From the NCBI GenBank assembly GCA_035708165.1, contig DASSSZ010000005.1, positions 40,719-104,718 on the forward strand: a stretch of DNA of 64,000 nucleotides. Direction: 5' to 3'. How positions within the stretch are numbered: position 1 is the first letter of the stretch; every line of letters begins with the position of its first letter. Under the pieces are notes generated by a model that was given only the letters and a program-made list of their open reading frames with translations, searched no databases and was not told where the DNA came from. This DNA comes from Minisyncoccota bacterium. Its GTDB lineage: Bacteria; Patescibacteriota; Minisyncoccia; Phycocordibacterales; UBA2100. Of the stretch, positions 2,459 through 45,185 are shown piece after piece. The translations under genes and the position numbers were made by a program.

Positions 2459-2462
2459 TACC

Positions 2463-3779: not shown

Positions 3780-3780
3780 T

Positions 3781-5280: not shown

Positions 5281-5294
5281 GGAAGAGTCCGGGA

Positions 5295-5334
5295 GGAAAA
5301 AGTAATATCCATTAAAATGGATATTACTTTTTCC
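5295..5334. terminator. AT-rich perfect 18-bp inverted repeat (ggaaaaagtaatatccat taaa atggatattactttttcc), probable bidirectional terminator
   Basis: Perfect palindrome read directly from the sequence. It lies between the stop of 3781..5280 and the promoter-like TTGACC(17 bp)CATACT upstream of 5396. Confidence 0.5.
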
Positions 5335-5395
5335 TGCCATCGAATTTTCCCCACCGTGCGGTTGACCCTCAAGATGAGGAGTTCATACTGCCCCT

Positions 5396-23416: not shown

Positions 23417-23743
23417 ATGACTGAAACAACTGAACGCAAGGTCTACCCCGGCATCGGCGGGTTCGTCGAGTTCATCCGCGAGCAAGGCGTCGTCGGGCTC
23501 GCGATCGGCTTCATCCTCGGCGGCGCGGTCAATACTGTCGTGCAGTCGCTCGTGAACAGCATCATCAATCCGCTCATCACTCTCGGCTTCGGCAGCATCA
23601 AGACGCTTTCGGCGTGGTCGGTCGGGCCGGTGGGCGTGGGTGCGTTCCTCTCCGCCCTCATCAATCTCATCATCATGGCCGCGGTGGTGTACTTCATCTT
23701 CAAAGGCTTGGGGCTCGACCACCTCGATAAGCCGAAGAAGTGA
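23417..23743 (+). CDS. mscL: large-conductance mechanosensitive channel
   Basis: FIREQGVVGLAIGFILGGAVNTVVQSLVNSIINPLI matches the MscL TM1 signature. Length is 108 aa. Confidence 0.85.
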   Translation: MTETTERKVYPGIGGFVEFIREQGVVGLAIGFILGGAVNTVVQSLVNSIINPLITLGFGSIKTLSAWSVGPVGVGAFLSALINLIIMAAVVYFIFKGLGLDHLDKPKK

Positions 23744-25368
23744 TGGACGAGGGCTTCGCGCGCGCCCCGGAGCGCGCGGGCAGGGAAGCAGCAGCGGTGT
23801 ACGGCGTGAGCGCGGCCATCCTGGCGGGGGTCGCGCTCCGTTCATTCGTGCCGTTCGGCGGGCCGGTCATGGCATGCGTGCTGCTTGCGGCTGGCTGCCT
23901 CGTGCTCGCATCCCTTGCCGCGCGCCGTAGAGCGTGGATGACGCTTGCGGCGGTTTTCCTCATCGCGCTCTCGCTGGGCATGTGGCGGATGGATGCGGCG
24001 TCGCATCTCTCCGATCCCGCCCTCGACCGCGCCCTCGGGCAGCAGGTGGCGCTCGAAGGGGTGATCAGCGCCGATGCCGACCGGCGCGAATCCTCGACCC
24101 TGCTCTCCGTGAGGGCGGACGCGCTCGTCATGGGAGGCGCGACAACGAGCATCTCAGCGACCGTACTCGCTGTCGCCGATCCCTACGCGCAGGGGGCGTA
24201 CGGGGACCGGGTCCGGATCGAAGGGCAGCTCGCCTTGCCGGAAGCGTTCGATACGGACACCGGCCGCCAGTTCGACTACCCCGGCTACCTCGCGGCGCAG
24301 GGGATCGCGTACGAGGTGATGGGCCCGGCGATAACGGTCATCTCGCATGGGCATGGCAATGGCATCATGGCCTGGCTGCTCGCGCTCAAGCATGGGTATC
24401 TCAGCGGGCTCACGCGCGCGCTGCCGTTGCCAGAGTCGGCGCTTGCGGGCGGCATCACGGCAGGGGACAAGCGCGCGCTCGGGAAGGAGCTGTTAGCTGA
24501 TTTCCGCACTGCCGGCATCGTGCACATCGTCGTCCTCTCGGGGTACAACGTGACGATCATCGCCGAGAGCGTGATGGCGATTCTCGGCTTCCTGCCGCGC
24601 GCGTTCGGCATCACGGCGGGCGCGCTCGGGATCGCGGCATTCGCCGCGATGACAGGCGGCAGCGCCTCGATCGTGCGCGCGAGCATCATGGCCGTGCTCG
24701 CGCTTGTCGCGCAGGCCATCCGCCGGCCGTATGCGATCCTGCGTGCGCTCGTGCTCACCGTAGTCGGCATGGTGCTCTGGAATCCGTTCATCCTCATCCA
24801 TGACCCGGGATTCCAGCTTTCGGTCATCGCGACGCTCGGCCTCATCTTCGTGACGCCGCTCCTCGTCGAACGCATGGGATGGCTCACGGAGCGCTTCGGC
24901 ATCCGCGAGATCGTCGGCGCGACGCTCGGGACGCAGCTCTCGGTGCTGCCGCTCCTCCTCTGGCAGATGGGGACCTTGAGCCTCGTCGCGCTGCCGGTCA
25001 ACGTCCTGGTCCTCGCGGTCGTGCCGGCGGCGATGCTGCTCTCGGCGCTCGCCGCGCTCGCAGGGATCCTGCTGCCGTGGCTCGCGCCGATGCTCGGGCT
25101 GCCGGCGTATGTGCTCCTTGCGTACATGCTCGCGATCGTGCACGCGAGCGTATCCGTGCCGTTCGCCGCGCTCGCGGTACCGCCATTCCCGGCTCCCGTC
25201 ATGCTGCTCTCCTACGCAGGGCTGATCGCGCTTCTCGTAGCGGTGCATCGTAAAAGGATCGCGGCCGCTTCCGTGAAAGAAGCGGCCGCGGCGCTATCCG
25301 GCGATCTTCTGACCGGGCTGTCGCCCGTGACTACCGGTGCGGAGACGGGCGGCGAGGCACAAGCGTGA
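23740..25368 (+). CDS. comEC: ComEC/Rec2 DNA-internalisation channel, membrane (DUF4131 + competence) domains only
   Basis: A multi-TM protein with VHIVVLSGYNVTIIAES...GGSASIVRASIMAVLALVA, the competence-domain signature. No MBL domain is present in this ORF. Confidence 0.85.
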   Translation: MMDEGFARAPERAGREAAAVYGVSAAILAGVALRSFVPFGGPVMACVLLAAGCLVLASLAARRRAWMTLAAVFLIALSLGMWRMDAASHLSDPALDRALGQQVALEGVISADADRRESSTLLSVRADALVMGGATTSISATVLAVADPYAQGAYGDRVRIEGQLALPEAFDTDTGRQFDYPGYLAAQGIAYEVMGPAITVISHGHGNGIMAWLLALKHGYLSGLTRALPLPESALAGGITAGDKRALGKELLADFRTAGIVHIVVLSGYNVTIIAESVMAILGFLPRAFGITAGALGIAAFAAMTGGSASIVRASIMAVLALVAQAIRRPYAILRALVLTVVGMVLWNPFILIHDPGFQLSVIATLGLIFVTPLLVERMGWLTERFGIREIVGATLGTQLSVLPLLLWQMGTLSLVALPVNVLVLAVVPAAMLLSALAALAGILLPWLAPMLGLPAYVLLAYMLAIVHASVSVPFAALAVPPFPAPVMLLSYAGLIALLVAVHRKRIAAASVKEAAAALSGDLLTGLSPVTTGAETGGEAQA

Positions 25369-25618
25369 GTTCCGCGAAGCGCTTCGAGAGCGCCGAGAAC
25401 AAGCGGCCCCACGGCGAGGCGGCCTCGTCATCGAGCGCTGGTCCTTGCACGATGCAGAACGTCGCGTGAATCTCGCGCAGCAAGGCGACATCCGTGATCT
25501 CGGGGACGATAACGACGAAGCACTCGGCGAGGAAGCGCCCCACGGCTGCCTGGCTGTGCGCATCGAGCGCCCGCGCGCGCTTGCAGATCAAGGCGAGGTG
25601 CGCTGAATCAGGATTCAT
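25331..25618 (-). CDS. hypothetical protein (95 aa)
   Basis: Strong RBS AAGGAGGT lies 7 nt upstream of ATG (MNPDSAHL...). Its 3' end overlaps the comEC 3' end convergently. Confidence 0.4.
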   Translation of the reverse strand: MNPDSAHLALICKRARALDAHSQAAVGRFLAECFVVIVPEITDVALLREIHATFCIVQGPALDDEAASPWGRLFSALSKRFAELTLVPRRPSPHR

Positions 25619-25690
25619 TCCTACCTCCTTCGAAAGGACTTGCGACACTATATGCATTCGGGAGGGAAAAGGGAAGCGGGGCTCCGGACG

Positions 25691-26296
25691 CTAAGCCTCG
25701 GCAGTGGCTGCGGCGAACCGATCTTCGATGACGCGCCAATTGAGATTCCGGAGGAATGCCTCGATATGCGTTCCTTTCTCGGCCGGCAGGTAGTCGACCA
25801 TGTAGGAATGCTCCCACATGTCCATCGCGAGCAGGATCTCCACGTCGGCGAGCATGCCGAGCTCGTGATCGGTCGTCCACCACACGTGCGGCGTGCCGCC
25901 CTTCTGGTCCCATGCGAGCGTGCACCAGCCGCTGCCGCGGCTCATGCCGACCTTCGTGAAGTGCGCGATGAACCCATCCCACGAGCCGTACTTCTCCGAA
26001 AGCGCATTCCCGAGGGCGCTCTCGCGGGGCGCCTCGGTGGCGCCGCCTTCCCACTGCGGGAAGTAGAACTCATGCATGCGCATGCCGTTGAACTCGAAGC
26101 CGAGCCTGCGGCGGACCGATTCGATCGCGAACGCATACTTCTCCGGATCTTCTGCGGTAAGGTCGGCGATCTGCGAGCGCAGGAGGTTGATCTGCTTCAC
26201 GTAGCCTTGGTAGAGGCCGAGGTGCACCTCGATCTGCTTGTCGGAGATACCCTCGAGGGAGGGGATATCGAACGTACGCGCTTCGTATGTATGCAT
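25691..26296 (-). CDS. sodA: Fe/Mn superoxide dismutase
   Basis: DMWEHSYMVDY and metal-ligand His/Asp pattern are present. Length is 201 aa. Confidence 0.95.
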   Translation of the reverse strand: MHTYEARTFDIPSLEGISDKQIEVHLGLYQGYVKQINLLRSQIADLTAEDPEKYAFAIESVRRRLGFEFNGMRMHEFYFPQWEGGATEAPRESALGNALSEKYGSWDGFIAHFTKVGMSRGSGWCTLAWDQKGGTPHVWWTTDHELGMLADVEILLAMDMWEHSYMVDYLPAEKGTHIEAFLRNLNWRVIEDRFAAATAEA

Positions 26297-26377
26297 AAGT
26301 GTACGGGCTAGGGATGCTATGCGTGCAGTATACCTCGCAAAGAAATGACCCGGAGGTGAACTCCGGGCCGTCTCGTT

Positions 26378-26653
26378 TCAGAATCGGATCTGGTGCGGCG
26401 CGAGCTTGCGCTTGCGGAACCGTGCGTCCCACCAGCCGGTCTTCCTGTGCGGATCGTCTTCGGGATGCTGCTGCATCCTCGCGTCGTATCCGGCACGGTA
26501 GGCCGGGTCGTCCGATTGCGGCGGCATGCGCTCGCGGGCATCGTAGTAGCCGAGATCCCGCTTGGTCGTATCGTCTACCGGCTCGGCGAGATGCGCGAAC
26601 CGGCGATCGGGTTCTATGCGGGGCGTGAACGGGTCCTGTACGTTGTTGTACAT
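26378..26653 (-). CDS. small low-complexity D/R/P-rich protein
   Basis: ATG (MYNNVQDPF...) is preceded by GGGAGA RBS. It is divergent from the downstream ComEC-MBL gene. Confidence 0.4.
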   Translation of the reverse strand: MYNNVQDPFTPRIEPDRRFAHLAEPVDDTTKRDLGYYDARERMPPQSDDPAYRAGYDARMQQHPEDDPHRKTGWWDARFRKRKLAPHQIRF

Positions 26654-26697
26654 CAGACATCTCCCATGACTCTGTCCCGATACTAGCGGGCGCGGCA

Positions 26698-27612
26698 ATG
26701 AAGCGCAAGCCAAGGGCTATACTCAGGGCAATGGTCCAGAATGGCGCGCGGAGCATGCGGCTGCTCCTTCTTACGCTTTTCCTGCTCGCGCTCGCTGCCG
26801 GCCTCATCTGGTACCTGGCATGGCCGTCGTTTCAGCCGCGGCGCCTCACTGTCGCGTTCCTCGACGTGGGGCAGGGCGACGCGATCCTCATCGAATCGCC
26901 TACAGGCACGACGGTGCTCGTGGATGGCGGCCCCGGCAACGCGGTGCTCGGACGCCTGCCGGAGGTCATGCCATGGTGGGATCGCTCGATCGACATGATC
27001 GTGCCGACGCACCCGGATGCCGATCACATCGCGGGCCTCATCGGCGTGCTCGGGCGCTACCGGGTCGGCCGCGTGCTGCAATCGAGCGTCGAGGGGAGCA
27101 CTGCTACCTGGCGCGCGCTCGAGTCTGCGATCGCTGCCGATCACGTGCCGACGATGATCGCGACGCGCGGGCAGGTCTTCGATCTCGGCGGGGGCGCGTC
27201 CCTCGAGGTGCTCTTCCCGGATCGCCTGCTCCCGCATACCGAGACGAACACCGCGAGCATCGTTGCGCGGCTCGTCTACGGCAGCACGTCGTTCCTCCTG
27301 ACGGGCGATTCGCCGCAGCCGATCGAGGACTACCTTGTCTCGCTCGACGCGGACGATGGGATGCTCGCGAGCACGATCCTGAAGGCCGGCCACCACGGGT
27401 CCGCGCACTCATCCTCCCCGCTCTATGTGGGAACGGTTGATCCGCAGGCGGTCGTCTACTCGCGCGGCTGCAAGAATACGTACGGCTTCCCGGCCAGCGC
27501 GACGGTCGCGACATTCGAGCGCTTCGGCATCCCTGCGCATGACACGTGCGAGGAGGGGACGCTCGTCTTCTCCTCGGATGGAACGACGGTCTCGCTCCGC
27601 ACGCTGCGCTAG
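26698..27612 (+). CDS. ComEC-type metallo-beta-lactamase domain protein (stand-alone, N-terminal TM anchor)
   Basis: Motifs LDVGQGDAILIESP...VDGGP, PTHPDADHIAGL and GHHGS match the ComEC C-terminal MBL domain. It is encoded separately, 1.3 kb from comEC. Confidence 0.75.
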   Translation: MKRKPRAILRAMVQNGARSMRLLLLTLFLLALAAGLIWYLAWPSFQPRRLTVAFLDVGQGDAILIESPTGTTVLVDGGPGNAVLGRLPEVMPWWDRSIDMIVPTHPDADHIAGLIGVLGRYRVGRVLQSSVEGSTATWRALESAIAADHVPTMIATRGQVFDLGGGASLEVLFPDRLLPHTETNTASIVARLVYGSTSFLLTGDSPQPIEDYLVSLDADDGMLASTILKAGHHGSAHSSSPLYVGTVDPQAVVYSRGCKNTYGFPASATVATFERFGIPAHDTCEEGTLVFSSDGTTVSLRTLR

Positions 27613-27618
27613 CTTCAC

Positions 27619-27647
27619 TTGATTTTCAAAAATACATATTGTATAAT
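27619..27647 (+). promoter_or_regulatory. sigma70-like promoter TTGATT-17bp-TATAAT, followed by AGGAGG RBS at ~27673
   Basis: Direct reading. Perfect -10, good -35 and 17-bp spacer, upstream of 27686 ORF. Confidence 0.6.
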
Positions 27648-27685
27648 GCAGACCGGTTCAAGCACGCGCACTCAGGAGGGAATCC

Positions 27686-28123
27686 ATGCGCCGCATCCTC
27701 GCTCTTTTCGCATCTGCTGCAGTCGCAGCCGTCGCCTTCGCAGGTACGGCCGCACCCGCCTCTGCCAATGATCTCGCAGGACGCGTGATCACCGGCATCG
27801 CCGGCGCCTTCATCGGCGTCGTGGCGGATCAGGCATTCTTCCAGCCGGCGCGGCATGCGACCGGGCTGATCCTGCCACAGCAGGCGTGCCACTATACCGG
27901 CTATTACGACCGGTGGGGGCATCTCCACCAGACAGGGCGGATCTGCACGCAGGTCTATCAGCAGCCGCAGCCGTGGCGCGGCAATGGCGGCTGGCACCGG
28001 AACGGGCATCCTTGGCCGCATGACGGCCATATGATCCTCGTGCCGGTCGTGCCGGGCCCGCAGCCGATCCCGCTGCAGCAGCACCGCTGCTGGCGGATGA
28101 ACGGGCACATGGTCTGTTCCTGA
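27686..28123 (+). CDS. small secreted His/Cys/Trp-rich protein
   Basis: Signal peptide with AxA site. Mature part is rich in H, W, P, Q with 4 Cys. Confidence 0.55.
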   Translation: MRRILALFASAAVAAVAFAGTAAPASANDLAGRVITGIAGAFIGVVADQAFFQPARHATGLILPQQACHYTGYYDRWGHLHQTGRICTQVYQQPQPWRGNGGWHRNGHPWPHDGHMILVPVVPGPQPIPLQQHRCWRMNGHMVCS

Positions 28124-28138
28124 TCGAAGCGAGCGCGA

Positions 28139-28169
28139 GCCGGGGCGTAATGTCCCGGCTTTCTTTTTT
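28139..28169 (+). terminator. rho-independent terminator (gccggg...cccggc + ttcttttttc)
   Basis: Stem plus U-tract directly after stop of 27686..28123. Confidence 0.6.
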
Positions 28170-28219
28170 CCGCGTGGGCGCTATAACTGCCCTAGGCGAA
28201 CGGCTACAAGGAGGTTCTC

Positions 28220-28534
28220 ATGCGTCTCGTCGGCCTTCTCGCGGTGCTCGGCTGCCTCATGTTCGCGACGGCCGCACCGGCATCCCAGATGATCGCGACC
28301 CGCAACGGCGTGCCGGATCCGCACGCGCGCGGGCACAATTGCGTGGCGTGCCACTGGCATGCGCCGCCCGTCATCATCAAGGGGGACGAGCACTGCGCGA
28401 GCTGCCATCTGCCGGCGACGCAGGGAGATGTCGCCGCCTCGCGCATGTGCCGGCGGTTCCCGTGCCCCTGGCTCTTCTGGGATACGGACGGCAAGCCATA
28501 CCCGTTCGGCAATCTCAATGTCGTGCGGCGCTGA
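28220..28534 (+). CDS. small secreted protein with two CXXCH motifs (candidate dihaem c-type cytochrome or metal-binding protein)
   Basis: AGGAGG RBS and signal peptide are present. Motifs CVACH and CASCH occur in the 104-aa protein. Confidence 0.5.
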   Translation: MRLVGLLAVLGCLMFATAAPASQMIATRNGVPDPHARGHNCVACHWHAPPVIIKGDEHCASCHLPATQGDVAASRMCRRFPCPWLFWDTDGKPYPFGNLNVVRR

Positions 28535-28547
28535 GCGCAACGAAAAC

Positions 28548-28580
28548 GGCCCGAGAGCATGCTCTCGGGCCGTTCCTTCT
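28548..28580. terminator. bidirectional terminator, perfect palindrome ggcccgagagc at gctctcgggcc
   Basis: Between convergent 28220..28534(+) and rpmB(-). Confidence 0.65.
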
Positions 28581-34273: not shown

Positions 34274-34449
34274 GCGCCGCAGGATCGCGCAGGAGGCATC
34301 CGCGCGCTGCATCTTGCGGCGAGGAGCCGCACAGGAGCGCCGTTTTGCAATCGCCTCCGTTTCCTGGTACTCTTCGGGCACGCTTCGCGCGGCTTTTTAT
34401 TTGCATTCGCGCGGCCGCGCACTACTTATTTACTTCATCGATACGAGCT

Positions 34450-36624
34450 ATGGCACGAGATTATCCGCTTGAGAAAGTCCGCAATTTCGGCATCGTCGCG
34501 CACGTGGATGCCGGCAAGACCACCACGTCCGAGCGCATCCTCTTCTATACGGGCATGAGCCACAAGATCGGCGAGGTGCACGAGGGCGGCACCATCACCG
34601 ACTGGATGGAGCAGGAGCGCGAGCGCGGGATCACCATCACCGCCGCTGCCATCACCTGCTTCTGGACGCCTACGTATGCGCGCCTCGGCGCGGACAACGT
34701 CGCGCAGGCGACCGACGGGCAGAACCCGAAGCGCCACCGCTTCAATATCATCGACACCCCGGGGCACATCGACTTCACCTCCGAGGTGCAGCGCTCGATG
34801 CGCGTCCTCGACGGCGCGATCGTGGTGTTCGACGGCGTGGCCGGCGTGGAGCCGCAGTCCGAGACTAACTGGCGCTACGCCGAAGAGGCGAGCGTGCCGC
34901 GGCTGTGCTTCATCAACAAGCTCGACCGAACCGGTGCATCCTTCGAGCGCTCCTTCAAGAGCATCCGCGAGCGCCTCTCGAAGAATGCGTACCGCATGCA
35001 GCTGCCGGTCGGCGAGGAAGCCAACTTCGACGGCGAGGTGGACCTGCTCACGCGCAAGATGTTCGTCAACTCAGGCGCGATGGGCGAGATCGTCACGATG
35101 GCCGACGCGCCGGAGTCCATGAAGGACGATATCGAGACGTACCGCGCCGAGCTGATCGAGAAGATCGTGGAGCAGGACGAGGCCGCGATGAACGCGTACC
35201 TCGAGGGCAATGAGCCTGATCTCGACACGCTGAAGGCGCTCCTGCGCAAGGCCGTGATCGCCAATGAGATCTTTCCGGTCTACTGCGGCGCGTCGCTGAA
35301 GAACCGCGGCGTGCAGCCGATCCTCGATGCGGTCATCGACTACCTGCCGTCCCCTCTGGACGTGCCGGCAGCGAAGGGCGTCAATCCGGACACCGGCGAG
35401 GAGGAGTTCCGCGAGGCATCTGACGAAGCGCCGTTCTCCGCGCTCGCGTTCAAGCTCCAGACGGACCCGTTCGTGGGGCAGCTCACGTTCATCCGCGTGT
35501 ACTCGGGCAAGCTCGAGAGCGGCGGCTATGTCTACGATGCCAATAACGGCAAGAAGGAGCGCGTCGGCCGCATCGTGCGCCTGCAGGCGGACAAGCGCGA
35601 GGAGATCAAGGAGATCTACGCAGGCGAGATCGCCGGCCTCGTGGGCATGAAGGAGGTGAAGATCGGCCATACGCTCTGCGACGAGACGCACCCGATCCAC
35701 CTCGAAGAGATCAATTTCAAGCAGCCGGTCATCTCGATGCGCATCGAGCCGAAGACCAAGGCGGACCAGGAGAAGATGGGCATCGCGCTCAACAAGCTCA
35801 CCGACGAGGACCCGACGCTGCGCGTGACGACTGACCCGGAGACGATGGAGACTATCCTCTCGGGCATGGGCGAGCTGCACCTCGAGATCATCGTGGATCG
35901 CATGAAGCGCGAGTTCGGCGTCGAAGCGACGACCGGCAAGCCGCAGGTGGCGTACCGCGAGACCATCCAGGGTACTGCCGATAAGGAGGTGAAGTACATC
36001 AAGCAGACGGGCGGTCGCGGCCAGTACGGCCACGTGAAGCTCCGCGTGAAGCCGCTCGAGCCGCTTGCCGAGGGCGCGAAGATCCCGAACAACGTCCATC
36101 GCGAGGACCACTTCGAGTTCATCAACAGCATCAAGGGCGGCGTCATCCCGGCTGAGTACATCCCGGCAGTAGAGAAGGGGGTGCGCGAGTCCCTGACCCG
36201 CGGCGTTCTCGCCGGCTTCCCGATCGTGGACGTCTCGGTCGAGCTCTACGACGGCTCGTATCACGAGGTGGACTCTTCGGAGATCGCCTTCAAGATCGCA
36301 GGCTCGCAGGCATTCCAGGAAGCGGCAGCGGCAGCGCGGCCGGTCCTCCTCGAGCCGATCATGAAGCTCGAGGTCGTGACGCCGGAGAAGTTCCTCGGCG
36401 ACGTGAACGGATCGATCAGCAGCAAGCGCGGCGTCGTGGAGCGCATGGACGCGCGCGGCAATGATACGGTGATCGACGCGAAGGTCCCGCTCTCCGAGCT
36501 CTTCGGCTACACCACGCAGCTGCGCTCGATGACGGAAGGCCGCGCGACGCCGGTCATGGAATTCGACCACTATGCGGTCGTCCCGAAGAACGTCGCGGAC
36601 GAAGTGATCGCTACGAAGCGATAA
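34450..36624 (+). CDS. fusA: elongation factor G
   Basis: NFGIVAHVDAGKTTTSERIL, DTPGHIDF and the full five-domain EF-G length. It is preceded by TTGCAA-17-TACTCT and a T5-containing leader. Confidence 0.95.
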   Translation: MARDYPLEKVRNFGIVAHVDAGKTTTSERILFYTGMSHKIGEVHEGGTITDWMEQERERGITITAAAITCFWTPTYARLGADNVAQATDGQNPKRHRFNIIDTPGHIDFTSEVQRSMRVLDGAIVVFDGVAGVEPQSETNWRYAEEASVPRLCFINKLDRTGASFERSFKSIRERLSKNAYRMQLPVGEEANFDGEVDLLTRKMFVNSGAMGEIVTMADAPESMKDDIETYRAELIEKIVEQDEAAMNAYLEGNEPDLDTLKALLRKAVIANEIFPVYCGASLKNRGVQPILDAVIDYLPSPLDVPAAKGVNPDTGEEEFREASDEAPFSALAFKLQTDPFVGQLTFIRVYSGKLESGGYVYDANNGKKERVGRIVRLQADKREEIKEIYAGEIAGLVGMKEVKIGHTLCDETHPIHLEEINFKQPVISMRIEPKTKADQEKMGIALNKLTDEDPTLRVTTDPETMETILSGMGELHLEIIVDRMKREFGVEATTGKPQVAYRETIQGTADKEVKYIKQTGGRGQYGHVKLRVKPLEPLAEGAKIPNNVHREDHFEFINSIKGGVIPAEYIPAVEKGVRESLTRGVLAGFPIVDVSVELYDGSYHEVDSSEIAFKIAGSQAFQEAAAAARPVLLEPIMKLEVVTPEKFLGDVNGSISSKRGVVERMDARGNDTVIDAKVPLSELFGYTTQLRSMTEGRATPVMEFDHYAVVPKNVADEVIATKR

Positions 36625-37179: not shown

Positions 37180-38124
37180 ATGACGGCCCGTCGCACCAAG
37201 AAGAAATCGAACGAGCAATACGCGGTGCTGCTCAAGCAGCTGGGCGGTCTCATCGCGGTGACGATCCTGATCGCCGCTGCAACCGCGTTCATCTCCGCGA
37301 CGCCGCGCCACGCCTCCGCGACCGGCGACCCAGCCCTTTCCGGCTATCTATGGAGCGATACGATCGGCTGGATCAGCCTCAGCTGTACCAATACCGGCAC
37401 CTGCGGCACGCACAATTACGGCATGTCGATGGCCAGTTCCGGCGCACTTTCCGGCTATGGCTGGAGCGATAGCATCGGCTGGGTATCCGCCAATCCTTCC
37501 GATACCTCTGTCTGCGGCAGCCAGGCGACAGTGAGCACGAGCGGATCGGTCACCGGCTGGTTACGCGCGATTTCCGGCGGCACCTCGCAATCCGGCGGCT
37601 GGAACGGCTGCATCTCCCTCTCCGGGAGCGGCTATGGCGTGACATTCAATACGGCGAACGGCGCATTCGGCGGCTATGGCTGGGGTGACACGAATGTCGG
37701 CTGGGTGGATTTCTCCAAGGCGAGCGCTGTAGCATCGTGTACGCCGCAGAATATCTGCATCGGCAATAGCACGTACAATCAGAACGCCTATTGCCAGCAG
37801 ACGCTCATAAAGACGTGTGCTGGCACGTGCAGCAATGGCATCTGCTCGGAAGACCTGCCGCCGCCCACAGGAACGCTCATCGTCGCGCCGACCTTGGTGC
37901 GCGAAGGCATGAGCACGCAGGTCTCCTGGGATTCTGATGAGGCGTACGCCTGCCAGGTGACCGGCAGCAACGGCGATTCCTGGAGCGGTACGAGCGGGAC
38001 GAAGACGAGCAGTCCGATTACCGATACGGTCACGTATACGCTCTCATGCAAGAACGATGGCGGCAGCATGTCGGTCATCAAGAAGGTGAGTGTCTACCTC
38101 GTCCCGGTTTACCACGAGATCTGA
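37180..38124 (+). CDS. membrane-anchored surface protein with three LSGY-W-D-IGW repeats and a Cys-rich C-terminal domain
   Basis: The three repeats are LSGYLWSDTIGWISLS, LSGYGWSDSIGWVSAN and FGGYGWGDTNVGWVDFS. An N-terminal TM anchor and 14 Cys are present. Confidence 0.5.
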   Translation: MTARRTKKKSNEQYAVLLKQLGGLIAVTILIAAATAFISATPRHASATGDPALSGYLWSDTIGWISLSCTNTGTCGTHNYGMSMASSGALSGYGWSDSIGWVSANPSDTSVCGSQATVSTSGSVTGWLRAISGGTSQSGGWNGCISLSGSGYGVTFNTANGAFGGYGWGDTNVGWVDFSKASAVASCTPQNICIGNSTYNQNAYCQQTLIKTCAGTCSNGICSEDLPPPTGTLIVAPTLVREGMSTQVSWDSDEAYACQVTGSNGDSWSGTSGTKTSSPITDTVTYTLSCKNDGGSMSVIKKVSVYLVPVYHEI

Positions 38125-38292
38125 TCGCGGGATCTCCCGAAACGGCTGCACTATCGCTGAGCGATGGTACGCGTTACTGTGCTGGCGCGCATGCTGGTGG
38201 CATGCATACGGCCCGGAAGCGTATAGTGCAGTTATCCCCAACGCGAGATGCATGCGCCGGCAAAGGAAACTCATGCGCGGTACACTAAACGC

Positions 38293-40089
38293 ATGTTGAA
38301 ATCTCACATGCCGACACGTCGTGAGTTCTTCCTCCTCGCATTCCTCTTCGCCTACACCATCGCCTTCAGCGGCGTCGTCCTCGCCTGGACTGGCCCGACT
38401 GCGAGCGCGCCATCGAACAACGTCTCTGCCCCGATCAATGTCGGCTCAACCGCTCAGATCAAGACGGGCGGGTTCTGGGCCTCTTCCATCGGTTCGGATT
38501 CCGGCTACTGCATCGGCAGCTCGTGCATCACGAGCTGGCCGTCCGCGAGCACTGATCTCTGGACTAAGAGCGGATCGAGCATCTATTACAACACTGGCAA
38601 CGTCGGCATCGGCGTCACGAGCCCGTACTTCGCGCTGCAAGTCGATCAACCGTCCGCGACAGGCGGCGGCATCGCAGTCTCCACGAGCGGCCAGGATGGT
38701 AGTGCGCTCAATGGTATCAGTAACAGATATTCATATACACAGACCTCAAGCGCCACCCGGTACCCGATCGGGAATGCCAATTCCATTTACGCTAAGATCG
38801 CTTCCGGCGTGACGAACTCCGGCTACGTGATGGGTATTGACGACACGATCCTGCGCAACTACGCCGCGAATAGTGCCGATGACGGCACCCTCGCGAGTCT
38901 CATCGGCGAGCGCATCCAGTATGGCCACTACAATGTCGATCCGGGTTCGACACCGGTGACGACCGCTGCGATCGGCATCGAGATCAATCCGCTCGCATAC
39001 ACCGGCTCGATCGGCACCATGTATGACCTTCTCCTCTCCGGATCGAGCGGGAGCGATTTCGGGACGCACTACGGCATCTACCAGTCAGGCTCAGCGTTGA
39101 ACTATTTCGGAGGGAAGGTCGGCATCGGTACCTCGAATCCCAGCGCCACCCTCGACGTCAACGGCACTGCAGTCATTGGCCGCCCTTCGGATTATTGGGC
39201 TACCAGCGGCTTTTATGGTGTCAGTGGCTTAGGTCAGCTCAGCACGGACGGCTCTTATGAGACCTCCCTCACTTCAAACGGCTATCGTAACTCGAGCGGC
39301 ACCTGGACCTCTTACGGTGCGAATGGCTACACTGGTGCCTCTCAGATCGCCCTCAGTCCGCAGGGCTACATCGACTTTCGTGCCGACACATCGAAAGCTT
39401 CAGGTAGTGCGACTCACCCTGACACGGTCATGCGGATTACGCCTGCGGGGAGTGTGGGAATTGGCACCGCTTCGCCTGGCACCAAGCTCACCGTCGCTGG
39501 TGAGATCACGTCCACGAACGCCAACGCATTCCGCATGGCCTACGGCAACTACGGCGCATTCTGGCGCAACGACGGCAGCAATACCTACTTCCTCCTCACG
39601 AACTCGGGCGATCAGTACGGCACGTGGAACTCCCTGCGGCCGCTTACCATCAACGATTCGAGCGGGGCAGTGACGGTCGGGACAGGCCTTACGGTGAGCG
39701 GGAATGTCTCCGCAAGCGCCTTCCTCTATACCTCCGACCAGTCCCTCAAGCACAATGTGCAGACGATTCCCGACGCGCTCTCGCTGGTCGAGAAGCTGCG
39801 TGGCGTGATGTTCAACTGGAACAGCGATGATCGTCCCGATATGGGTGTGATTGCGCAGGAGGTGCAGAAGGTCCTCCCGCAGCTCGTGCACACCGATGCG
39901 GCGACCGGACTCGAATCAGTCGAATACGGCAACTTCATCGGCATTTTCATCGAGGCGATCAAGCAGGTGCAAGGAGAGGTGACGAATCTTCAGCAAGAGA
40001 ATGCGCAATTGACGCAGCAGAATGCGCAGCTCACGCAGGAAGTGCAATCGCTCGATGCACGTGTTTCAGCGCTTGAAGCGGCACGGTAG
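38293..40089 (+). CDS. tail-fibre-like surface protein with C-terminal peptidase-S74-type intramolecular chaperone domain and terminal coiled-coil
   Basis: C-terminal SDQSLKHNVQTIPDALSLVEKLRGVMFNWNSDDRPDMGVIAQEVQKVLPQLVHTDAATGLESVEYGNFIGIFIEAIKQVQ matches the endosialidase/tail-spike chaperone domain pattern (SD..K.NI..l...L..l...Y.w......GviAQEv..v.PelV). An N-terminal TM anchor is present. Confidence 0.65.
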   Translation: MLKSHMPTRREFFLLAFLFAYTIAFSGVVLAWTGPTASAPSNNVSAPINVGSTAQIKTGGFWASSIGSDSGYCIGSSCITSWPSASTDLWTKSGSSIYYNTGNVGIGVTSPYFALQVDQPSATGGGIAVSTSGQDGSALNGISNRYSYTQTSSATRYPIGNANSIYAKIASGVTNSGYVMGIDDTILRNYAANSADDGTLASLIGERIQYGHYNVDPGSTPVTTAAIGIEINPLAYTGSIGTMYDLLLSGSSGSDFGTHYGIYQSGSALNYFGGKVGIGTSNPSATLDVNGTAVIGRPSDYWATSGFYGVSGLGQLSTDGSYETSLTSNGYRNSSGTWTSYGANGYTGASQIALSPQGYIDFRADTSKASGSATHPDTVMRITPAGSVGIGTASPGTKLTVAGEITSTNANAFRMAYGNYGAFWRNDGSNTYFLLTNSGDQYGTWNSLRPLTINDSSGAVTVGTGLTVSGNVSASAFLYTSDQSLKHNVQTIPDALSLVEKLRGVMFNWNSDDRPDMGVIAQEVQKVLPQLVHTDAATGLESVEYGNFIGIFIEAIKQVQGEVTNLQQENAQLTQQNAQLTQEVQSLDARVSALEAAR

Positions 40090-40099
40090 TTTAGGGGGC

Positions 40100-41317
40100 A
40101 TGATCGGTTTCGATTCTCAGCAACATGCCATATCACGACGATTCCTACGTCTGAGAGCGTGCAGGCTCTTTATCGGCAAGATTCTCTCCCTAGCCCTCAG
40201 TATCATCGTGGCGGTCGGCATACTGCCGATTCCTGCATCAGCGGCGAGCGGCTCGCAGTCCTACACGACTCCGGGGACGTATACGTTCACCATACCGGCG
40301 AACTACACGTCGCTCACCGTGCAGGTGTGGGGAGGTGGAGGCGGCGGAGGTGCATTGGGCGGCGGAGGCGGCGGCGCATACAATACGAAGACATTCGCTG
40401 CAGGCGCGTTGTCGGGATCGGTGACAGTGACGGTGGGTGCCGGCGGCGCCGGCATGCCGTTCGACTCGTACACGTCTGGCGGTGTGACTGGCGGCACGAG
40501 TAGCTTCGGATCGTATGTTGCTGCCTATGGCGGCGGAGGAGGAGGAGCCGGTTCGAATTCGGCGTATGCCGGTGCCGGCGGCGGCGGACAAAGCGCTGCG
40601 GGCCAGATCGGAGGGTACACGTCCGGCGGCGCGGGCGGCAGTCCGTCCGGCGGCGCGGGCGGCGCATCATCGATAGGTGGTAGCAAGCAGGCTCAGACGA
40701 CCGCTCAGCCTGGAGGTAATTCCGTATATGGCGGCGGAGGCGGTGGCGGCATAGCTATCAATTCTATCTCGAATGGCGCAGCGGGTGGCTCCTCGACGTA
40801 CGGCGGCGGAGGCGGCGGAGGCTTCGGGGGCGCCAATAGTTCGGGCGCAGGCGGCTCCTCGACCTACGGCGGAGGCGGTGGCGGGGCAGGGGAGGATAAC
40901 AACGGCGCGCACGCGGGTGCGGGTGGCTACTCGACGAGCGGCGGCGCTGGAGGTGCGGGCTGCAACCTGACCAGTTCTCTCGCTGTCATTTCTCCTGCGC
41001 AGTCCGGTTACTTCCCGGCGGGCGGAGGCGGAGGCGGATACAGGCAGAGCTGTGTCGGCGGCAATGGCGCAGGCGGCGAAGTCGTCATCACCTGGACCGC
41101 TTCGAACTGCCCGACGGCCATCACATCCGCAGCGGGCGGTAAGGGATTCCAGCTCCTCGCGAACATCGCGAATCGGCTGATCAGCGCCGTCGGCATCAAT
41201 ACATGCGTCACGAACACCACCGGCAACAGCTACTTCATCCCTTCGAATACCGCAGCTGAACTGCAGAGCTTCCTGAACGCGGCCTCCCGCCTCGGCGTGA
41301 CGGTGTTCACACCGTAG
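40100..41317 (+). CDS. secreted glycine-rich-domain protein (TFTIPANYTSLTVQVWGGGGGGG motif)
   Basis: RBS AGGGGG is present. A signal/anchor is followed by long G-rich repeats (GGGGGG.. SSTYGGGGGG). The C-terminal module NTTGNSYFIPSNTAAELQSFLN is shared with the N-terminus of 42280..43029. Confidence 0.55.
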   Translation: MIGFDSQQHAISRRFLRLRACRLFIGKILSLALSIIVAVGILPIPASAASGSQSYTTPGTYTFTIPANYTSLTVQVWGGGGGGGALGGGGGGAYNTKTFAAGALSGSVTVTVGAGGAGMPFDSYTSGGVTGGTSSFGSYVAAYGGGGGGAGSNSAYAGAGGGGQSAAGQIGGYTSGGAGGSPSGGAGGASSIGGSKQAQTTAQPGGNSVYGGGGGGGIAINSISNGAAGGSSTYGGGGGGGFGGANSSGAGGSSTYGGGGGGAGEDNNGAHAGAGGYSTSGGAGGAGCNLTSSLAVISPAQSGYFPAGGGGGGYRQSCVGGNGAGGEVVITWTASNCPTAITSAAGGKGFQLLANIANRLISAVGINTCVTNTTGNSYFIPSNTAAELQSFLNAASRLGVTVFTP

Positions 41318-41459
41318 CGAGTTACCCACAGGCACTCCCTGTCATCCCCTCAATGCGGTGTCGCGGTCGGCTCTCGATGAGCATCTAGTGCTGCACGTCT
41401 GCTCATTCCTGTGCACATTCCGCATCAATCGACCGGAAATAGGCGGGTATACTAGAGAC

Positions 41460-42299
41460 ATGATGCTCGTGGTTCCTGAGGTGGGCGATGTATCGCGATG
41501 TGCCGGCGCACGCGCATCGCGCGGCGAAATTCGCACGGAGCTGCTGGCGTTTGTCGGGCTGTGCATCGCGCTCTGCCTCGTCGGTCTAGCATACTATGCC
41601 TCCCAGTATCGGCAGGGGGCATCGGCGGCCGCATCTTCTGCGGCTTCCCATGATACGACCGCGCTGGCGCTCTCGTCGACTGAAGTGAGCACCTCCTCAT
41701 TGCCGGCGACCTTCGCGCCTGCGAGCGACACGGTGACCCTCTACGAATTCGATTCATTCGATCCATCCTGCACCTCGTGCGCAGGCGTGCATGCAGCGGT
41801 CATGGCGGCGGTCGCGTCCCTGCCGAGCAGCGCGGTGTATCATTTCCGCGCGTACCCGATCGCACGTCCGCTCTCGGACGATGCGTCCTCGACGCCAGTG
41901 TTCGATCCGCGCGACATCCTGGGGCTGTGCATCGCCTCGGCCACACAGGCGCAAGGTGATGGTGCGATCCTCGCGTATGCCGCAGCTGCATACGCGAGCG
42001 CGAGCGCGACGCCTGATGCGCTTCTGAGCGCGATCCCTGCTGCGGATCGCGATGCGGCGGAGAACTGCGTCGCCGCGATGCCCGAGAACGACATGCCGAT
42101 CACCGATGTGCTCTCACGGTACCAGTACGACCAGGTGCCGAGCGCGCCCGCCGTATTCATCCAGATTCCGGGCGTACCTGATCCGATTTCGATCGGCGCT
42201 GACCCGAAGAACATCGCGGCCGTGCTGCAGTCGCTGGTCGCCGACCCGGCCGGTTTCGCCGCATCGCTGAGGGAGCAATATGAGAAACGTGCGCAGTAG
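41460..42299 (+). CDS. membrane-anchored thioredoxin-fold protein, DsbA-like (CxxC = CTSC), tentative
   Basis: VTLYEFDSFDPSCTSCAGVHAAV resembles the DsbA active-site context (..vEFfsy.CphC). A TM anchor is present. A TATACT -10 lies upstream. Confidence 0.4.
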   Translation: MMLVVPEVGDVSRCAGARASRGEIRTELLAFVGLCIALCLVGLAYYASQYRQGASAAASSAASHDTTALALSSTEVSTSSLPATFAPASDTVTLYEFDSFDPSCTSCAGVHAAVMAAVASLPSSAVYHFRAYPIARPLSDDASSTPVFDPRDILGLCIASATQAQGDGAILAYAAAAYASASATPDALLSAIPAADRDAAENCVAAMPENDMPITDVLSRYQYDQVPSAPAVFIQIPGVPDPISIGADPKNIAAVLQSLVADPAGFAASLREQYEKRAQ

Positions 42300-43029
42300 G
42301 AAATGGCAGCTGTTCTGCCTGTGCGCGGCAGGCGCCGTGCTCGTGCTTGGCGCGCGCGAGGCGTTCGCCATCAATGCGATCTCGGAAGGATTCAAGGTGA
42401 ACGGCACAAGCCAGCAGATCAGCGCCTATAGCAGCTGCTACGAAGCGAATTCGACGAACGGCGCCGCGTATTTCTTTCCGTCGAAGACCTCGACCGAGTT
42501 CAGTTCGTTCGTGAACCACAAGCCCGCAGCCGTGAACCTGAACGCATGTCAGATGCTGACCGGCGGGAAACATACGGCTGTCGACTGCTCCGGAGCCGGG
42601 GGATCGACATTCGACGGCCTCTGCAAATTCGCCGGATCGGTCTGTCCGTCAAGCTGGACAGCTTCCGGCTACGTCGACTGGCCGAGCTTCTCGTGTTCTG
42701 CGGTCTCTTCGTATGTGTGCGATGCGGGCACGCAGTACACCGGACCGACGAGCTGCAGCGGCGGGAGCAGCTTCTCTTCTTCTGGCATCACGCCTTCCTG
42801 CTCGTATGGTTATACCTCGAGCTCGTACGGAGCGTACACCACGTACGGATGGACCAACCCTCCATGCGGGTATCAAGACGTCTGCGGCGGGTTCCCGTAT
42901 AGCTGCACGCTTCAATATGTGTGCCCGGCCCCTGTATACGGGCCCATCACGGCGTATGGAGAGATTTGCTCGCCAGTGTCGGAGACCTGCAGAGAGCCAT
43001 ATGCTCCAAGCGCGATTTATTGCGAATAG
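42280..43029 (+). CDS. secreted Cys-rich protein (about 25 Cys)
   Basis: Signal peptide is present. The N-terminal module AAYFFPSKTSTEFSSFVN is similar to the C-terminus of 40100..41317. The C-terminal half is Cys/Tyr/Ser/Gly-rich. Confidence 0.5.
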   Translation: MRNVRSRKWQLFCLCAAGAVLVLGAREAFAINAISEGFKVNGTSQQISAYSSCYEANSTNGAAYFFPSKTSTEFSSFVNHKPAAVNLNACQMLTGGKHTAVDCSGAGGSTFDGLCKFAGSVCPSSWTASGYVDWPSFSCSAVSSYVCDAGTQYTGPTSCSGGSSFSSSGITPSCSYGYTSSSYGAYTTYGWTNPPCGYQDVCGGFPYSCTLQYVCPAPVYGPITAYGEICSPVSETCREPYAPSAIYCE

Positions 43030-43096
43030 ATCTCACCGAGATACGTTATCAACAAGCGGGCGCCGGCGAATGGCCGCCGTGGTGTAATCTAATGGC

Positions 43097-44902
43097 ATGA
43101 ATAGTAACGGTAATGATGGCATGCACTCATTGCGCCGCTCCCTCGCCGGGCTTTCAGGCCGCAGCAACCTCTTCCTCCTCGCATTCCTCTTCGCCTACAC
43201 CATCGCCTTCAGCGGCGTCGTCCTCGCCTGGACCGGCCCCACGGCAAGCGCGCCATCGAACAACGTCTCTGCGCCGGTCAATGTCGGTGCGACGAGCCAA
43301 ATCAAAACCGGCGGCTTCTGGGCTTCTTCTATCGGCTCCGACAATGGCTACTGCATCGGTAGCTCGTGCATCACCTCGTGGCCCTCTGGCCTTGGCGGCT
43401 CGGGATCGACGAACTATGTCCCGAAGTTCACTGCCGGCACGACCTTGGGCAATTCGCTTATCTCCGACAATGGTTCGACGGTCGTCGTGCACGGTACTGG
43501 CAACACCACGACCTGGGCATTCGAAGGCTTGGGTGGCTATGAAGGCGTCTACGGCTCTGGGACCAACATCGGCCTCTATGGCGCCACGTCGGGCAGTACC
43601 GGCGGCTGGGCGATCGAAGGCGTCGGCAGCAACACCTCGAGCAATGGCATCTACGGGCAGGGAACCAATGTCGCGACGGAAGCATACAACCCGACGAGCG
43701 GCAGCCGTGTCTATCTTGGCTACGGGAACTATGGCATCTACTCCAGTGCGCCGACTAACTACTTCAGCGGCAACGTCGGGATCGGCGATTCCTCGCCCTC
43801 GACCGATCTCGACGTGGCGGGCGATATCTGGACGTCAGCGGCAGGCAGCGGCCGCAGCTCGTTCTATGACCTGGCTGGTGGCAAGATCGCCGCAGGCTCG
43901 AGCCTCTATTCGTACGGCGACATCTGCACCGGCAACAACAGCGGCGCGTGCACTGGTACGGGCGGCGTCGTGATCGGCAATACGAATGCATCCGCTGCGG
44001 TGAACGTCACGAATGCCGGTACTATCCGCACGAACGGAGAAGTGCAATCCGCTTCAGCGAACGCCTTCCGCATGGTCTACGGCAACTACGGCGCCTTCTG
44101 GCGCAATGACGGTTCGAATACTTACTTCCTTCTCACCAATTCCGGTGATCAATATGGCACCTACAATTCGTTGCGTCCGCTCTGGATTAATGATGCGAAT
44201 GGGAGTGTCGGGATCGGTACGTCGTTGAGTGTGCCGAGCATCAAATTCTCTGATGGTACGACGCAGACGACGGCAGCGACCGGAGGGAATTCGCATGCGC
44301 AGATATTCACCTCAAGCGGTACCTGGACGAAGCCTTCCGGAGTCAATGTGGTTATCGCGCAATGCTGGGGCGGTGGAGGTGGTGGACTGTCCGATCCGAG
44401 TTATCACCAGGTTGATGCTGGCGGTGGTGGCGGAGGATATCTTGAAATGACGTTTGCTGCGTCTCAAATCGCCTCATCAGTAGCGGTTACGGTGGGCGGC
44501 GGCGGTGCGGGGACAACCTCGAGTGGACAGACTGCCTATGCCGGCAATGGTGGTACGTCAAGTTTCGGACCCTATCTCTCCGTGCAGGGCGGGAGCGGTG
44601 CTTACCACATCACTAATAATAGCGCATGGACTCCTGGGGCTGGTGGTGGCGGCGGGCTCTATGGTCCGGGGAATGGCGGATCCGGTGCATCTGGCCAGTC
44701 GGGCTCGACGATGGCAGTTGGGGCAGGGGCTTCGGCATTCGGTGGTGGTGGCGGTGGTGGTGGGACCACGGTTTCTAGCGGAGGAACATCTCAGAATGGA
44801 GGAGCCGGCGGAGCGGACGGTTATGCTGGTGCTGCACCAGGCGGCGGCGGAGGTGGCGGTGCATCGGGTGCCCGCGGGGAGTGCATCATTTACTCCTACT
44901 AG
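43097..44902 (+). CDS. tail-fibre-like surface protein, mosaic paralog of 38293..40089 with C-terminal glycine-rich domain (TWTKPSGVNVVIAQCWGGGGGG motif)
   Basis: The N-terminal ~85 aa are near-identical to 38293 gene, and a shared central block is ANAFRM.YGNYGAFWRNDGSNTYFLLTNSGDQYGT. The C-terminus is G-rich like 40100 gene. Confidence 0.6.
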   Translation: MNSNGNDGMHSLRRSLAGLSGRSNLFLLAFLFAYTIAFSGVVLAWTGPTASAPSNNVSAPVNVGATSQIKTGGFWASSIGSDNGYCIGSSCITSWPSGLGGSGSTNYVPKFTAGTTLGNSLISDNGSTVVVHGTGNTTTWAFEGLGGYEGVYGSGTNIGLYGATSGSTGGWAIEGVGSNTSSNGIYGQGTNVATEAYNPTSGSRVYLGYGNYGIYSSAPTNYFSGNVGIGDSSPSTDLDVAGDIWTSAAGSGRSSFYDLAGGKIAAGSSLYSYGDICTGNNSGACTGTGGVVIGNTNASAAVNVTNAGTIRTNGEVQSASANAFRMVYGNYGAFWRNDGSNTYFLLTNSGDQYGTYNSLRPLWINDANGSVGIGTSLSVPSIKFSDGTTQTTAATGGNSHAQIFTSSGTWTKPSGVNVVIAQCWGGGGGGLSDPSYHQVDAGGGGGGYLEMTFAASQIASSVAVTVGGGGAGTTSSGQTAYAGNGGTSSFGPYLSVQGGSGAYHITNNSAWTPGAGGGGGLYGPGNGGSGASGQSGSTMAVGAGASAFGGGGGGGGTTVSSGGTSQNGGAGGADGYAGAAPGGGGGGGASGARGECIIYSY

Positions 44903-45185
44903 CGCCTCGCAAGCCTCTGAAAGACGCGCGGAGCCTGCGGCCCGCGCGTCTTTCGCGCGTATGCACCGGTTGCGCATATGGCTTGACGTAGCGCATATGC
45001 TTGGATAGTATTGCGGCACGCAGAGGCGTTTTTTGTTTGCTCATTGCCAGGCCGGAATCAGCCACACTGGGCGGCAGGATCGCATACTGCACCTTATTAT
45101 CCAGCGGAGTTGCTAGAGAAGAGGGAAGGTTCTCGTGCCCCCATCTCTGGTAGCTCGGTTCGTATGGCTAACTACTGATAATCGT

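Follow-up and report, generated by a model that had tools for sequence, protein, structure and literature searches.

Introduction

Small dihaem cytochromes, such as DHC2 of Geobacter, carry two CXXCH motifs and are of the same size class as the protein described here. Cytochromes of the c3 type mix CXXCH and CXXXXCH sites. Bacteria of the candidate phyla radiation (CPR; Patescibacteria) are regarded as fermentative episymbionts that have almost no extracellular redox cofactor proteins. In this study, a 64,000-nucleotide stretch of contig DASSSZ010000005.1 (the window) was analyzed, with two adjoining open reading frames (ORFs), ORF1 and ORF2, as its subject. Both are annotated as hypothetical proteins and lie, with the elements given below for them, on the plus strand. 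ORF2 (HET8581389.1, VFL98_02895; 28220..28534) encodes a predicted exported protein of 104 residues and is a candidate dihaem c-type cytochrome. The sequence evidence makes it about as likely as not that ORF2 encodes an exported dihaem c-type cytochrome restricted to its lineage, descended from c7/c3-like (class III) cytochromes and representing a new and very small family.

Haem proteins have rarely been reported in the CPR. One Parcubacterium, 'Candidatus Parcunitrobacter nitroensis', has cytochromes of 4–10 haems within a full respiratory cluster (HAO, PetAB, NOR, SDH) (PMC5220378), and these were the only documented c-type cytochromes of Parcubacteria found in the literature search. Operons for haem-copper bo3 oxidases with a haem O synthase are described from soil CPR lineages, one Parcubacteria sequence included (PMC8407418). 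Haem proteins are thus not excluded in the CPR by published work. In the same search, no report of cytochrome c biogenesis genes in the CPR was found, and the ORF2 family was unreported as far as searched.

The window belongs to a metagenome-assembled genome of Candidatus Paceibacterota, near Kaiserbacteria, from an ultra-small CPR bacterium of soil. The parent contig is 178,732 bp long, and the G+C content of the window is 63%. An earlier reading of the letters of the window (the original prediction) had supposed an organism with a minimal gene set, and the host is indeed a minimal-genome CPR bacterium.

ORF2 and Its CXXCH Motifs

The reading frames were checked by their G+C content at each codon position because long spurious ORFs are common in G+C-rich DNA. 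The values at positions 1/2/3 were 0.70/0.53/0.79 for ORF1 and 0.66/0.54/0.86 for ORF2. Both agreed with the neighbour genes (~0.65/0.45/0.86), and the overlapping alternative frames disagreed. The G+C content of 63%, the many long spurious ORFs that overlap real genes and the single homologue of ORF1 could suggest that one or both frames are open by chance. However, codon-position G+C is right only in the proposed frames, Shine-Dalgarno sites, signal peptides, a promoter and terminators are present, and syntenic homologues with conserved residues have a ratio of nonsynonymous to synonymous substitutions (dN/dS) below 1. A chance origin is therefore extremely improbable and, for ORF2, effectively refuted. 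The dN/dS estimates in the ORF2 family were 0.17–0.65, with synonymous sites saturated. Since codon-position G+C fits and dN/dS is below 1, ORF2 is a real gene under purifying selection.

The first motif of ORF2 is CVACH (C41, V, A, C44, H45; 28340..28354) and the second is CASCH (C59, A, S, C62, H63; 28394..28408). The mature protein has about 80 residues, or about 40 residues per haem. When it was shuffled with its six Cys and six His retained, at least two CXXCH motifs arose in 2e-4 of the trials. From the proteome composition of the window, 0.03 CXXCH would be expected over all its genes, and none was found in any other called gene of the 64 kb (composition-based gene set). The CXXCH pair of ORF2 is not due to chance.

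An N-terminal export signal or signal-anchor, MRLVGLLAVLGCLMFATAAPA followed by SQ (28220..28282), was read by eye from the sequence. All five known members of the family have a basic start, a hydrophobic core of 16–21 residues and an AxA-like site, likewise by eye. This would be a Sec-type signal, either cleaved or acting as an anchor. Two other kinds of signal were considered and rejected. The VLGC in the signal peptide of the window protein suggested a lipoprotein, and its Cys is not conserved in the other members; a Tat signal was dismissed, the twin-arginine motif being absent.

Conservation in the ORF2 Family

A word-indexed search of 5.8 billion proteins found only ORF2 itself. When 1.84 billion cluster representatives were searched exhaustively with HMMER, three relatives were returned, with E values of 6e-12, 4e-11 and 3e-4, and a profile search added a fourth, for a family of five. 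No further members were found in GTDB species genomes, JGI metagenome contigs (two pattern sets) or IMG/VR.

In the alignment of the five sequences, identity was 34–45%, and the two Cys and the His of both motifs were invariant in all members. The original prediction had described a 104-residue signal-peptide protein with CVACH and CASCH at 28220..28534, and this description holds, as does that of two small secreted Cys/His-rich proteins: both ORFs are in the coding frame, with export signals read from the sequence. The invariant residues include H35, R37, G38, C41, C44, H45, P49, P50, E57, C59, C62, H63, T67, C77, C82 and P83. The four x positions of the motifs all vary (V/W, A/G/V, A/G/S and S/Q/E/A), and the adjoining residues vary too. 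Sites at which haem c is attached are expected to show this pattern, an invariant CXXCH with variable x positions.

The two motifs are separated by 13 residues in ORF2 of the window and by 16 in the other members. H35 (28322..28324) is the sole invariant His beyond both motifs and is a candidate distal haem ligand. H39, H47 and H58 are not conserved, and the mature part of one member (P0004) has only three His. An invariant C77-x4-C82-P83 (28448..28468; x6 in two members) follows the motifs, and it might form a disulphide or represent a degenerate third haem site.

Likeness to Multihaem Cytochromes

The best Pfam match of every member was Cytochrome_C7, below threshold, with E values of 0.0019–0.14. 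The strongest of these matches, that of member P0003, scored 18.4 bits against a cut-off of 24.8 and covered profile positions 8–64 of 67; it began at the invariant His and ended shortly after the first of the two Cys in C-x4-C. ORF2 of the window scored 12.7 bits. Cytochrom_c3_2 matched four of the five members weakly (E 0.0028–0.03), at best with 18.5 bits against a cut-off of 25. Eight of the ten NCBIfam families listed as weak matches were multihaem c cytochromes, and these included HmcA, CctA, TmcA, NrfH, OmcA/MtrC and the c7 nanowire domain.

The profile matches in the PDB up to an E value of 10 were multihaem c cytochromes in 22 of 22 cases. The best was ActA of alternative complex III, in which G-x-x-CxxCH-x14-E-x-CxxCH was aligned. 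The entries 6LOD and 8K9E gave E values of 0.09 and 0.1, the second match taking in the N-terminal helix, and the matches to ActA/NrfH-type proteins lay at 0.09–0.19. Zinc-ribbon, thioredoxin-like and metallochaperone families had no match at E values up to 10 in Pfam, NCBIfam or PDB. A dihaem cytochrome is the best single explanation of ORF2 because the conservation is specific to the motifs, the pull to multihaem families is near-exclusive and export signals are present in all five members.

Haem Supply and the Non-Haem Alternative

Several results weigh against a cytochrome. No match of ORF2 reached the threshold of a curated family, and the weak cytochrome matches owe largely to the CXXCH motifs themselves. 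Bis-His ligation of both haems, the rule in c7 and c3, calls for one additional conserved His per haem, and H35 is the only extra invariant His. Since its sequence falls short of the family thresholds and departs from the bis-His rule, ORF2 is not assigned to either c7 or c3. AlphaFold2 models from the five-sequence alignment had a predicted local distance difference test (pLDDT) score of 44 for ORF2 of the window and 52 for P0003, with the haem-motif region below 50, and only a C-terminal helix and beta-hairpin reached moderate confidence. Foldseek comparison of these low-confidence models with the PDB gave nothing at an E value below 0.7, and the models speak neither for nor against a cytochrome.

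The supply of haem also counts against a cytochrome. The original prediction had proposed a search of the genome for cytochrome c maturation (ccm/ccs) genes; the DNA covered was the window, about 4 kb beyond its right end and the related contigs L001–L005. The window was extended with Logan contigs, of which L087 gave the 4 kb on the right and L088 added almost nothing on the left. Neither ccsA, ccsB, resB, ccm or ccdA nor any gene for haem synthesis was found in the 64-kb window, and the Trp-rich motif of the CcsA type was likewise missing; the same holds for the right extension and L001–L005. No respiratory partner for ORF2 was seen in the window. Its contents are typical CPR housekeeping genes: type IV pilus proteins, PGK, HIT, RecJ, MscL, ComEC, superoxide dismutase (SOD), CofD, EF-G, EF-Tu, ribosomal protein operons, SecY, Adk, Map, Ndk and an RNase J-like protein. 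To our knowledge, CPR bacteria generally lack cytochrome c maturation systems. Monoderm bacteria usually tether their c-type cytochromes, and tethering of the ORF2 protein is uncertain from its sequence.

The main rival reading is an exported non-haem Cys/His protein, whose six invariant Cys would be paired in disulphides or would coordinate Zn, Cu or Fe together with H35, H45 and H63. The absence of haem and maturation genes from the DNA covered, the single conserved candidate distal ligand, and the C-terminal helix and beta-hairpin of the models, which are not a c7 feature, speak for such a protein. So do the three invariant His and six invariant Cys, which could make a metal site, the adjoining ORF1, which is likewise His-rich and exported, and the CXXC-x13-16-CXXC spacing, which is also that of zinc knuckles. 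Although this spacing fits a zinc ribbon or Cys4 knuckle, no such Pfam or NCBIfam family appeared even at E values of 5–10, and nearly all weak matches were to cytochromes c. The His is invariant right after both CXXC while the x positions vary, which is unexpected for a Cys4 site. Structural zinc sites are also unusual in exported proteins of monoderm cells, and this counts against a zinc protein. In a variant of this explanation, ORF2 may be a former cytochrome that lost its haem along with the maturation system of the lineage and was retained to handle metals, to buffer redox changes or to interact at the surface. We hold a non-haem protein to be a genuine possibility, somewhat short of an even one.

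Confidence in the dihaem cytochrome is limited by the single spare invariant His available to two haems, by matches that all fall short of significance, and by the need for a maturation system in a group generally without one. The original prediction had put forward a dihaem c-type cytochrome. The conserved motifs and the weak Pfam and PDB matches to multihaem families only agree with it; haem attachment is a prediction, and the conserved His do not provide for bis-His ligation of both haems. The comparison that it had suggested with small dihaem cytochromes and metallochaperones gave an E value of 0.87 for diheme_GEGP and no match for the metallochaperone families.

Promoters and Terminators

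The promoter scan covered 1.6 kb and found a sole sigma-70-like site, TTGATT-17-TATAAT at 27619..27647, where shuffled sequences would give 0.3. It stands before the first gene of the pair, and the same element was found in L001, L002, L003 and L005. Across all five ORF2-bearing loci, the promoter consists of TTGATT, TTGCTT or TTGCTA, 17 nucleotides and TATAAT, often with an upstream TG. It stands before whichever gene comes first: directly before ORF2 in the three loci without ORF1 (L002, L003 and L005), and before ORF1 in the window and L001. In the latter two, the strong promoter and a separate terminator belong to ORF1, and ORF2 is preceded by another promoter-like site, which is good in L001 (TTGATT-18-TATAGC) and weak in the window. 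There, a possible weak −10 element, TATAAC at 28183..28188, was read from the sequence without a convincing −35 element and was not called by the promoter scan.

The Shine-Dalgarno sequence of ORF1 is AGGAGG at 27674..27679, 6 nucleotides 5' of the ATG at 27686, and that of ORF2 is AAGGAGG at 28208..28214. A predicted intrinsic terminator follows ORF1 (28137..28171), with an 11-bp stem at 28137..28161 that has 7 G-C pairs and with a T run after it. A hairpin of the same kind lies 3' of the ORF1 homologue in L001 (7642..7666). ORF2 and the convergent L28 gene are separated by a perfect 28-nucleotide palindrome (28546..28573; minimum free energy −34.3 kcal/mol, z = −3.5), which is probably a bidirectional terminator common to both genes. 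Similar hairpins lie 3' of ORF2 in L001 (8100..8126), L002 (8520..8548) and L003 (3818..3844).

Separate transcription of ORF1 and ORF2 is suggested by these predicted signals. The original prediction had given the first gene a TTGATT-17-TATAAT promoter with AGGAGG, both of which were located, and had credited each gene with its own expression signals. Each does have a Shine-Dalgarno sequence and a terminator hairpin, and the ORF2 promoter of the window proved weak, with TATAAC and no good −35 element. No known RNA was found by Rfam in or around the ORF1-ORF2 pair. Over the whole 64 kb, there were no tRNA genes and no Rfam family at the gathering threshold, the usual ribosomal-protein leader elements included.

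Genomic Slot of ORF1 and ORF2

The gene order ComEC, SOD, metallo-beta-lactamase (MBL) domain protein, [ORF1], ORF2, L28, M50, S12, S7 was the same in all five ORF2-bearing loci. In its fuller layout, the region holds MscL, ComEC (DUF4131 and Competence domains), a small ORF, an Fe/Mn SOD on the opposite strand, a second small ORF, the separate MBL protein, [ORF1], ORF2, L28 on the opposite strand, the M50 peptidase, S12 and S7. The neighbour proteins are 55–82% identical across the ORF2-bearing genomes, against 34–45% for ORF2.

The MBL protein was used as an anchor to collect 80 related loci from GTDB species representatives, at 34–56% identity. These loci were labelled Kaiserbacteria, Nomurabacteria, Zambryskibacteria and similar groups, or were mislabelled 'Saccharibacteria'. 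None of the 80 carried a homologue of ORF1 or ORF2, and none of their approximately 10,800 six-frame segments contained two CXXCH motifs. In six of the eight of these loci inspected, MBL was followed directly by L28 and M50. Because the 80 loci lack both genes and MBL runs directly into L28 in these six, the slot between MBL and L28 is read from the sequences as a lineage-specific insertion in a Kaiserbacteria-like clade.

In one Kaiserbacteria genome (L007 6894..7304), the same slot is occupied by a different small gene, for a hydrophobic protein of 136 residues that is not Cys/His-rich. On this evidence, the slot may be one where genes for small envelope proteins insert recurrently.

This setting also bears on the idea that the product of ORF2, by itself or together with that of ORF1, is a precursor from which a secreted Cys-rich toxin, bacteriocin or host-directed adhesion factor is made, with CXXCH incidental to a disulphide knot. 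ORF2 is small, strongly promoted, exported, lineage-specific and, by the identities just given, fast-evolving; its distribution is patchy, and ORF1 is present or absent between close relatives. However, no modification, immunity or transporter gene lies nearby, the neighbours are conserved housekeeping genes in every relative, and two invariant His would be left unexplained. Such a precursor is considered very unlikely.

ORF1

ORF1 (HET8581388.1, VFL98_02890; 27686..28123) encodes a predicted exported protein of 145 residues. Its export signal, MRRILALFASAAVAAVAFAGTAAPASA followed by ND, was read by eye from the sequence, and its body is rich in His, Trp, Gln and Pro with four Cys (C68, C87, C135 and C144). 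A Gly-zipper-like hydrophobic stretch at residues 33–52 occurs only in the window copy. ORF1 contains no CXXCH, has no family match in Pfam or NCBIfam, and found only itself in the word-indexed search of 5.8 billion proteins.

The sole homologue of ORF1 among the fetched loci is a syntenic gene in L001 (7303..7623; 106 residues; BLASTP E 2e-12, phmmer E 3e-7). The two proteins have in common a signal peptide, a Gln/His/Trp/Pro-rich stretch, a C-terminal Cys pair and four conserved Cys. They share the motif QQxCHYxGxYDxxGxLHxxGxICxQ, whose two Cys are exactly 19 residues apart. The invariant QQxCHY in ORF1 (27686..28123) and in L001 7303..7623 is a lone Cys-His pair in an exported protein adjoining a CXXCH gene and might, for example, contribute a metal ligand.

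Paralogy of ORF1 and ORF2 was considered and rejected, the best local E value being 0.075. ORF1 was present in two of the five ORF2-bearing genomes (the window and L001) and absent in three. Since it is missing from these three, it is not an obligatory partner of ORF2. ORF1 would be a separate, dispensable, exported four-Cys protein rich in His, Trp and Gln, whose gene was inserted behind the promoter and ahead of ORF2 in some members of the lineage.

Proposed Function and Significance of ORF2

By its predicted signals, ORF2 is read from the strong conserved sigma-70 promoter or, in the window genome, behind ORF1 and its terminator, from its own weaker promoter. If ORF2 is a dihaem cytochrome, one haem would be attached covalently after export at C41/C44 with H45 as proximal ligand, and a second at C59/C62 with H63. 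H35 could complete the coordination of one haem as its sixth ligand. For the other, no His or Met partner is conserved; it might stay five-coordinate or take a ligand from C77, C82 or a different molecule. C77-x4-C82-P83 would then either form a disulphide or be left over from a third haem site. The reading requires that haem and a haem lyase of the system II type be encoded elsewhere in the genome. Outside the cytoplasm, at the surface of an episymbiont in oxic soil, the protein could carry single electrons or buffer redox changes; ORF2 lies a few genes from the Fe/Mn SOD.

A more far-reaching version would have a soil Kaiserbacteria-like CPR clade without its own respiratory chain export a minimal dihaem cytochrome. 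One haem would be His/His-ligated and the other five-coordinate or Cys-ligated, and the protein would serve for electron exchange with the host or the surroundings, or for the uptake of haem or redox equivalents from them. We regard this version as unlikely in full. If a cytochrome of such unusual ligation were confirmed, it would point to a cryptic haem-attachment route in the CPR or to reliance on scavenged haem.

A conserved, strongly promoted, exported dihaem cytochrome alone amid housekeeping genes would point to extracellular redox chemistry at the surface of the symbiont, for example electron exchange with the host or a role in dealing with oxygen or reactive oxygen species. How such cells come by their haem and attach it would then become a question as well. 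If no haem is bound, ORF2 would show a cytochrome scaffold put to a different use, which is of narrower interest.

Other Features of the Window

The split of ComEC is a feature in its own right. One gene encodes the DUF4131 and Competence domains (23740..25368) and another the metallo-beta-lactamase domain (26698..27612). The Fe/Mn SOD (25691..26296), in opposite orientation, and two small uncharacterized ORFs on the minus strand (25331..25657 and 26378..26713) are placed between the two. The arrangement (window 23740..27612; also L001, L002, L003 and L006) is kept in every related contig of sufficient reach.

A block of genes with lower third-position G+C (37180..44902) lies between EF-G (34345..36624) and EF-Tu (45135..46382) and encodes phage-tail-fibre-like proteins. 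By their domain matches, these include a protein with Gp34_trimer and the Peptidase_S74 intramolecular chaperone (38248..40089), a Gly_rich_2 protein (40022..41317) and a protein with Gp34_trimer and Gly_rich_2 (43097..44902). The C-terminal half of the 38248..40089 product is 27–29% identical to tail fibre proteins of Thermus and Maribacter phages. The block could be a host-attachment apparatus or a prophage remnant within the str operon.

Large ORFs of atypical composition were found at 2265..8596, with a third-position G+C of about 0.63 against 0.85–0.9 elsewhere. They comprise two proteins of about 500 residues with no family match (2265..3779 and 3709..5280) and a 1066-residue protein with an LCAT/alpha-beta-hydrolase (lipase-like) domain (5396..8596). 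This region may be acquired DNA, since a TraG P-loop protein is encoded at 111..1004.

Comparison with Known Cytochromes

Like the trihaem cytochromes c7 of the PpcA type (PF14522), the ORF2 protein is small and exported, with about 25–40 residues per haem and closely spaced CXXCH motifs, and a His lies a few residues before the first motif. In contrast to c7, it has two motifs instead of three, with C-x4-C-P without His in the third position. The ORF2 family has one spare conserved His, whereas c7 needs three. A C-terminal beta-hairpin is predicted for ORF2, and its host is a CPR bacterium and not a metal reducer.

With the tetrahaem cytochromes c3 (PF14537, class III), the likeness is in the invariant C-x4-C of the ORF2 family, which resembles a CXXXXCH site. 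An invariant Pro replaces the proximal His of the would-be CX4CH site, so C-x4-C-P looks like a c3-type site whose His was lost. The c3 proteins differ in having four haem sites against two and a bis-His complement that ORF2 lacks.

The N-terminal dihaem module of NapC/NirT/NrfH and ActA (PDB 6LOD, 8K9E) has the same succession of a hydrophobic helix, G-x-x-CxxCH, 13–16 residues and E-x-CxxCH. Those proteins carry 4–5 haems, stay anchored in the membrane by a helix that is not cleaved, and cooperate with quinones or partner reductases. ORF2, in contrast, has two motifs, its helix is followed by a cleavage site of the AxA type, and partner genes are absent; it falls outside this family.

The NCBIfam family diheme_GEGP is of the same size class and also has two CXXCH, but its similarity to ORF2 is not significant. 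The Pfam family DHC was absent from the Pfam scans of the ORF2 family. Unlike the cytochromes of Parcunitrobacter, ORF2 encodes a lone 104-residue protein amid housekeeping genes, outside any respiratory context.

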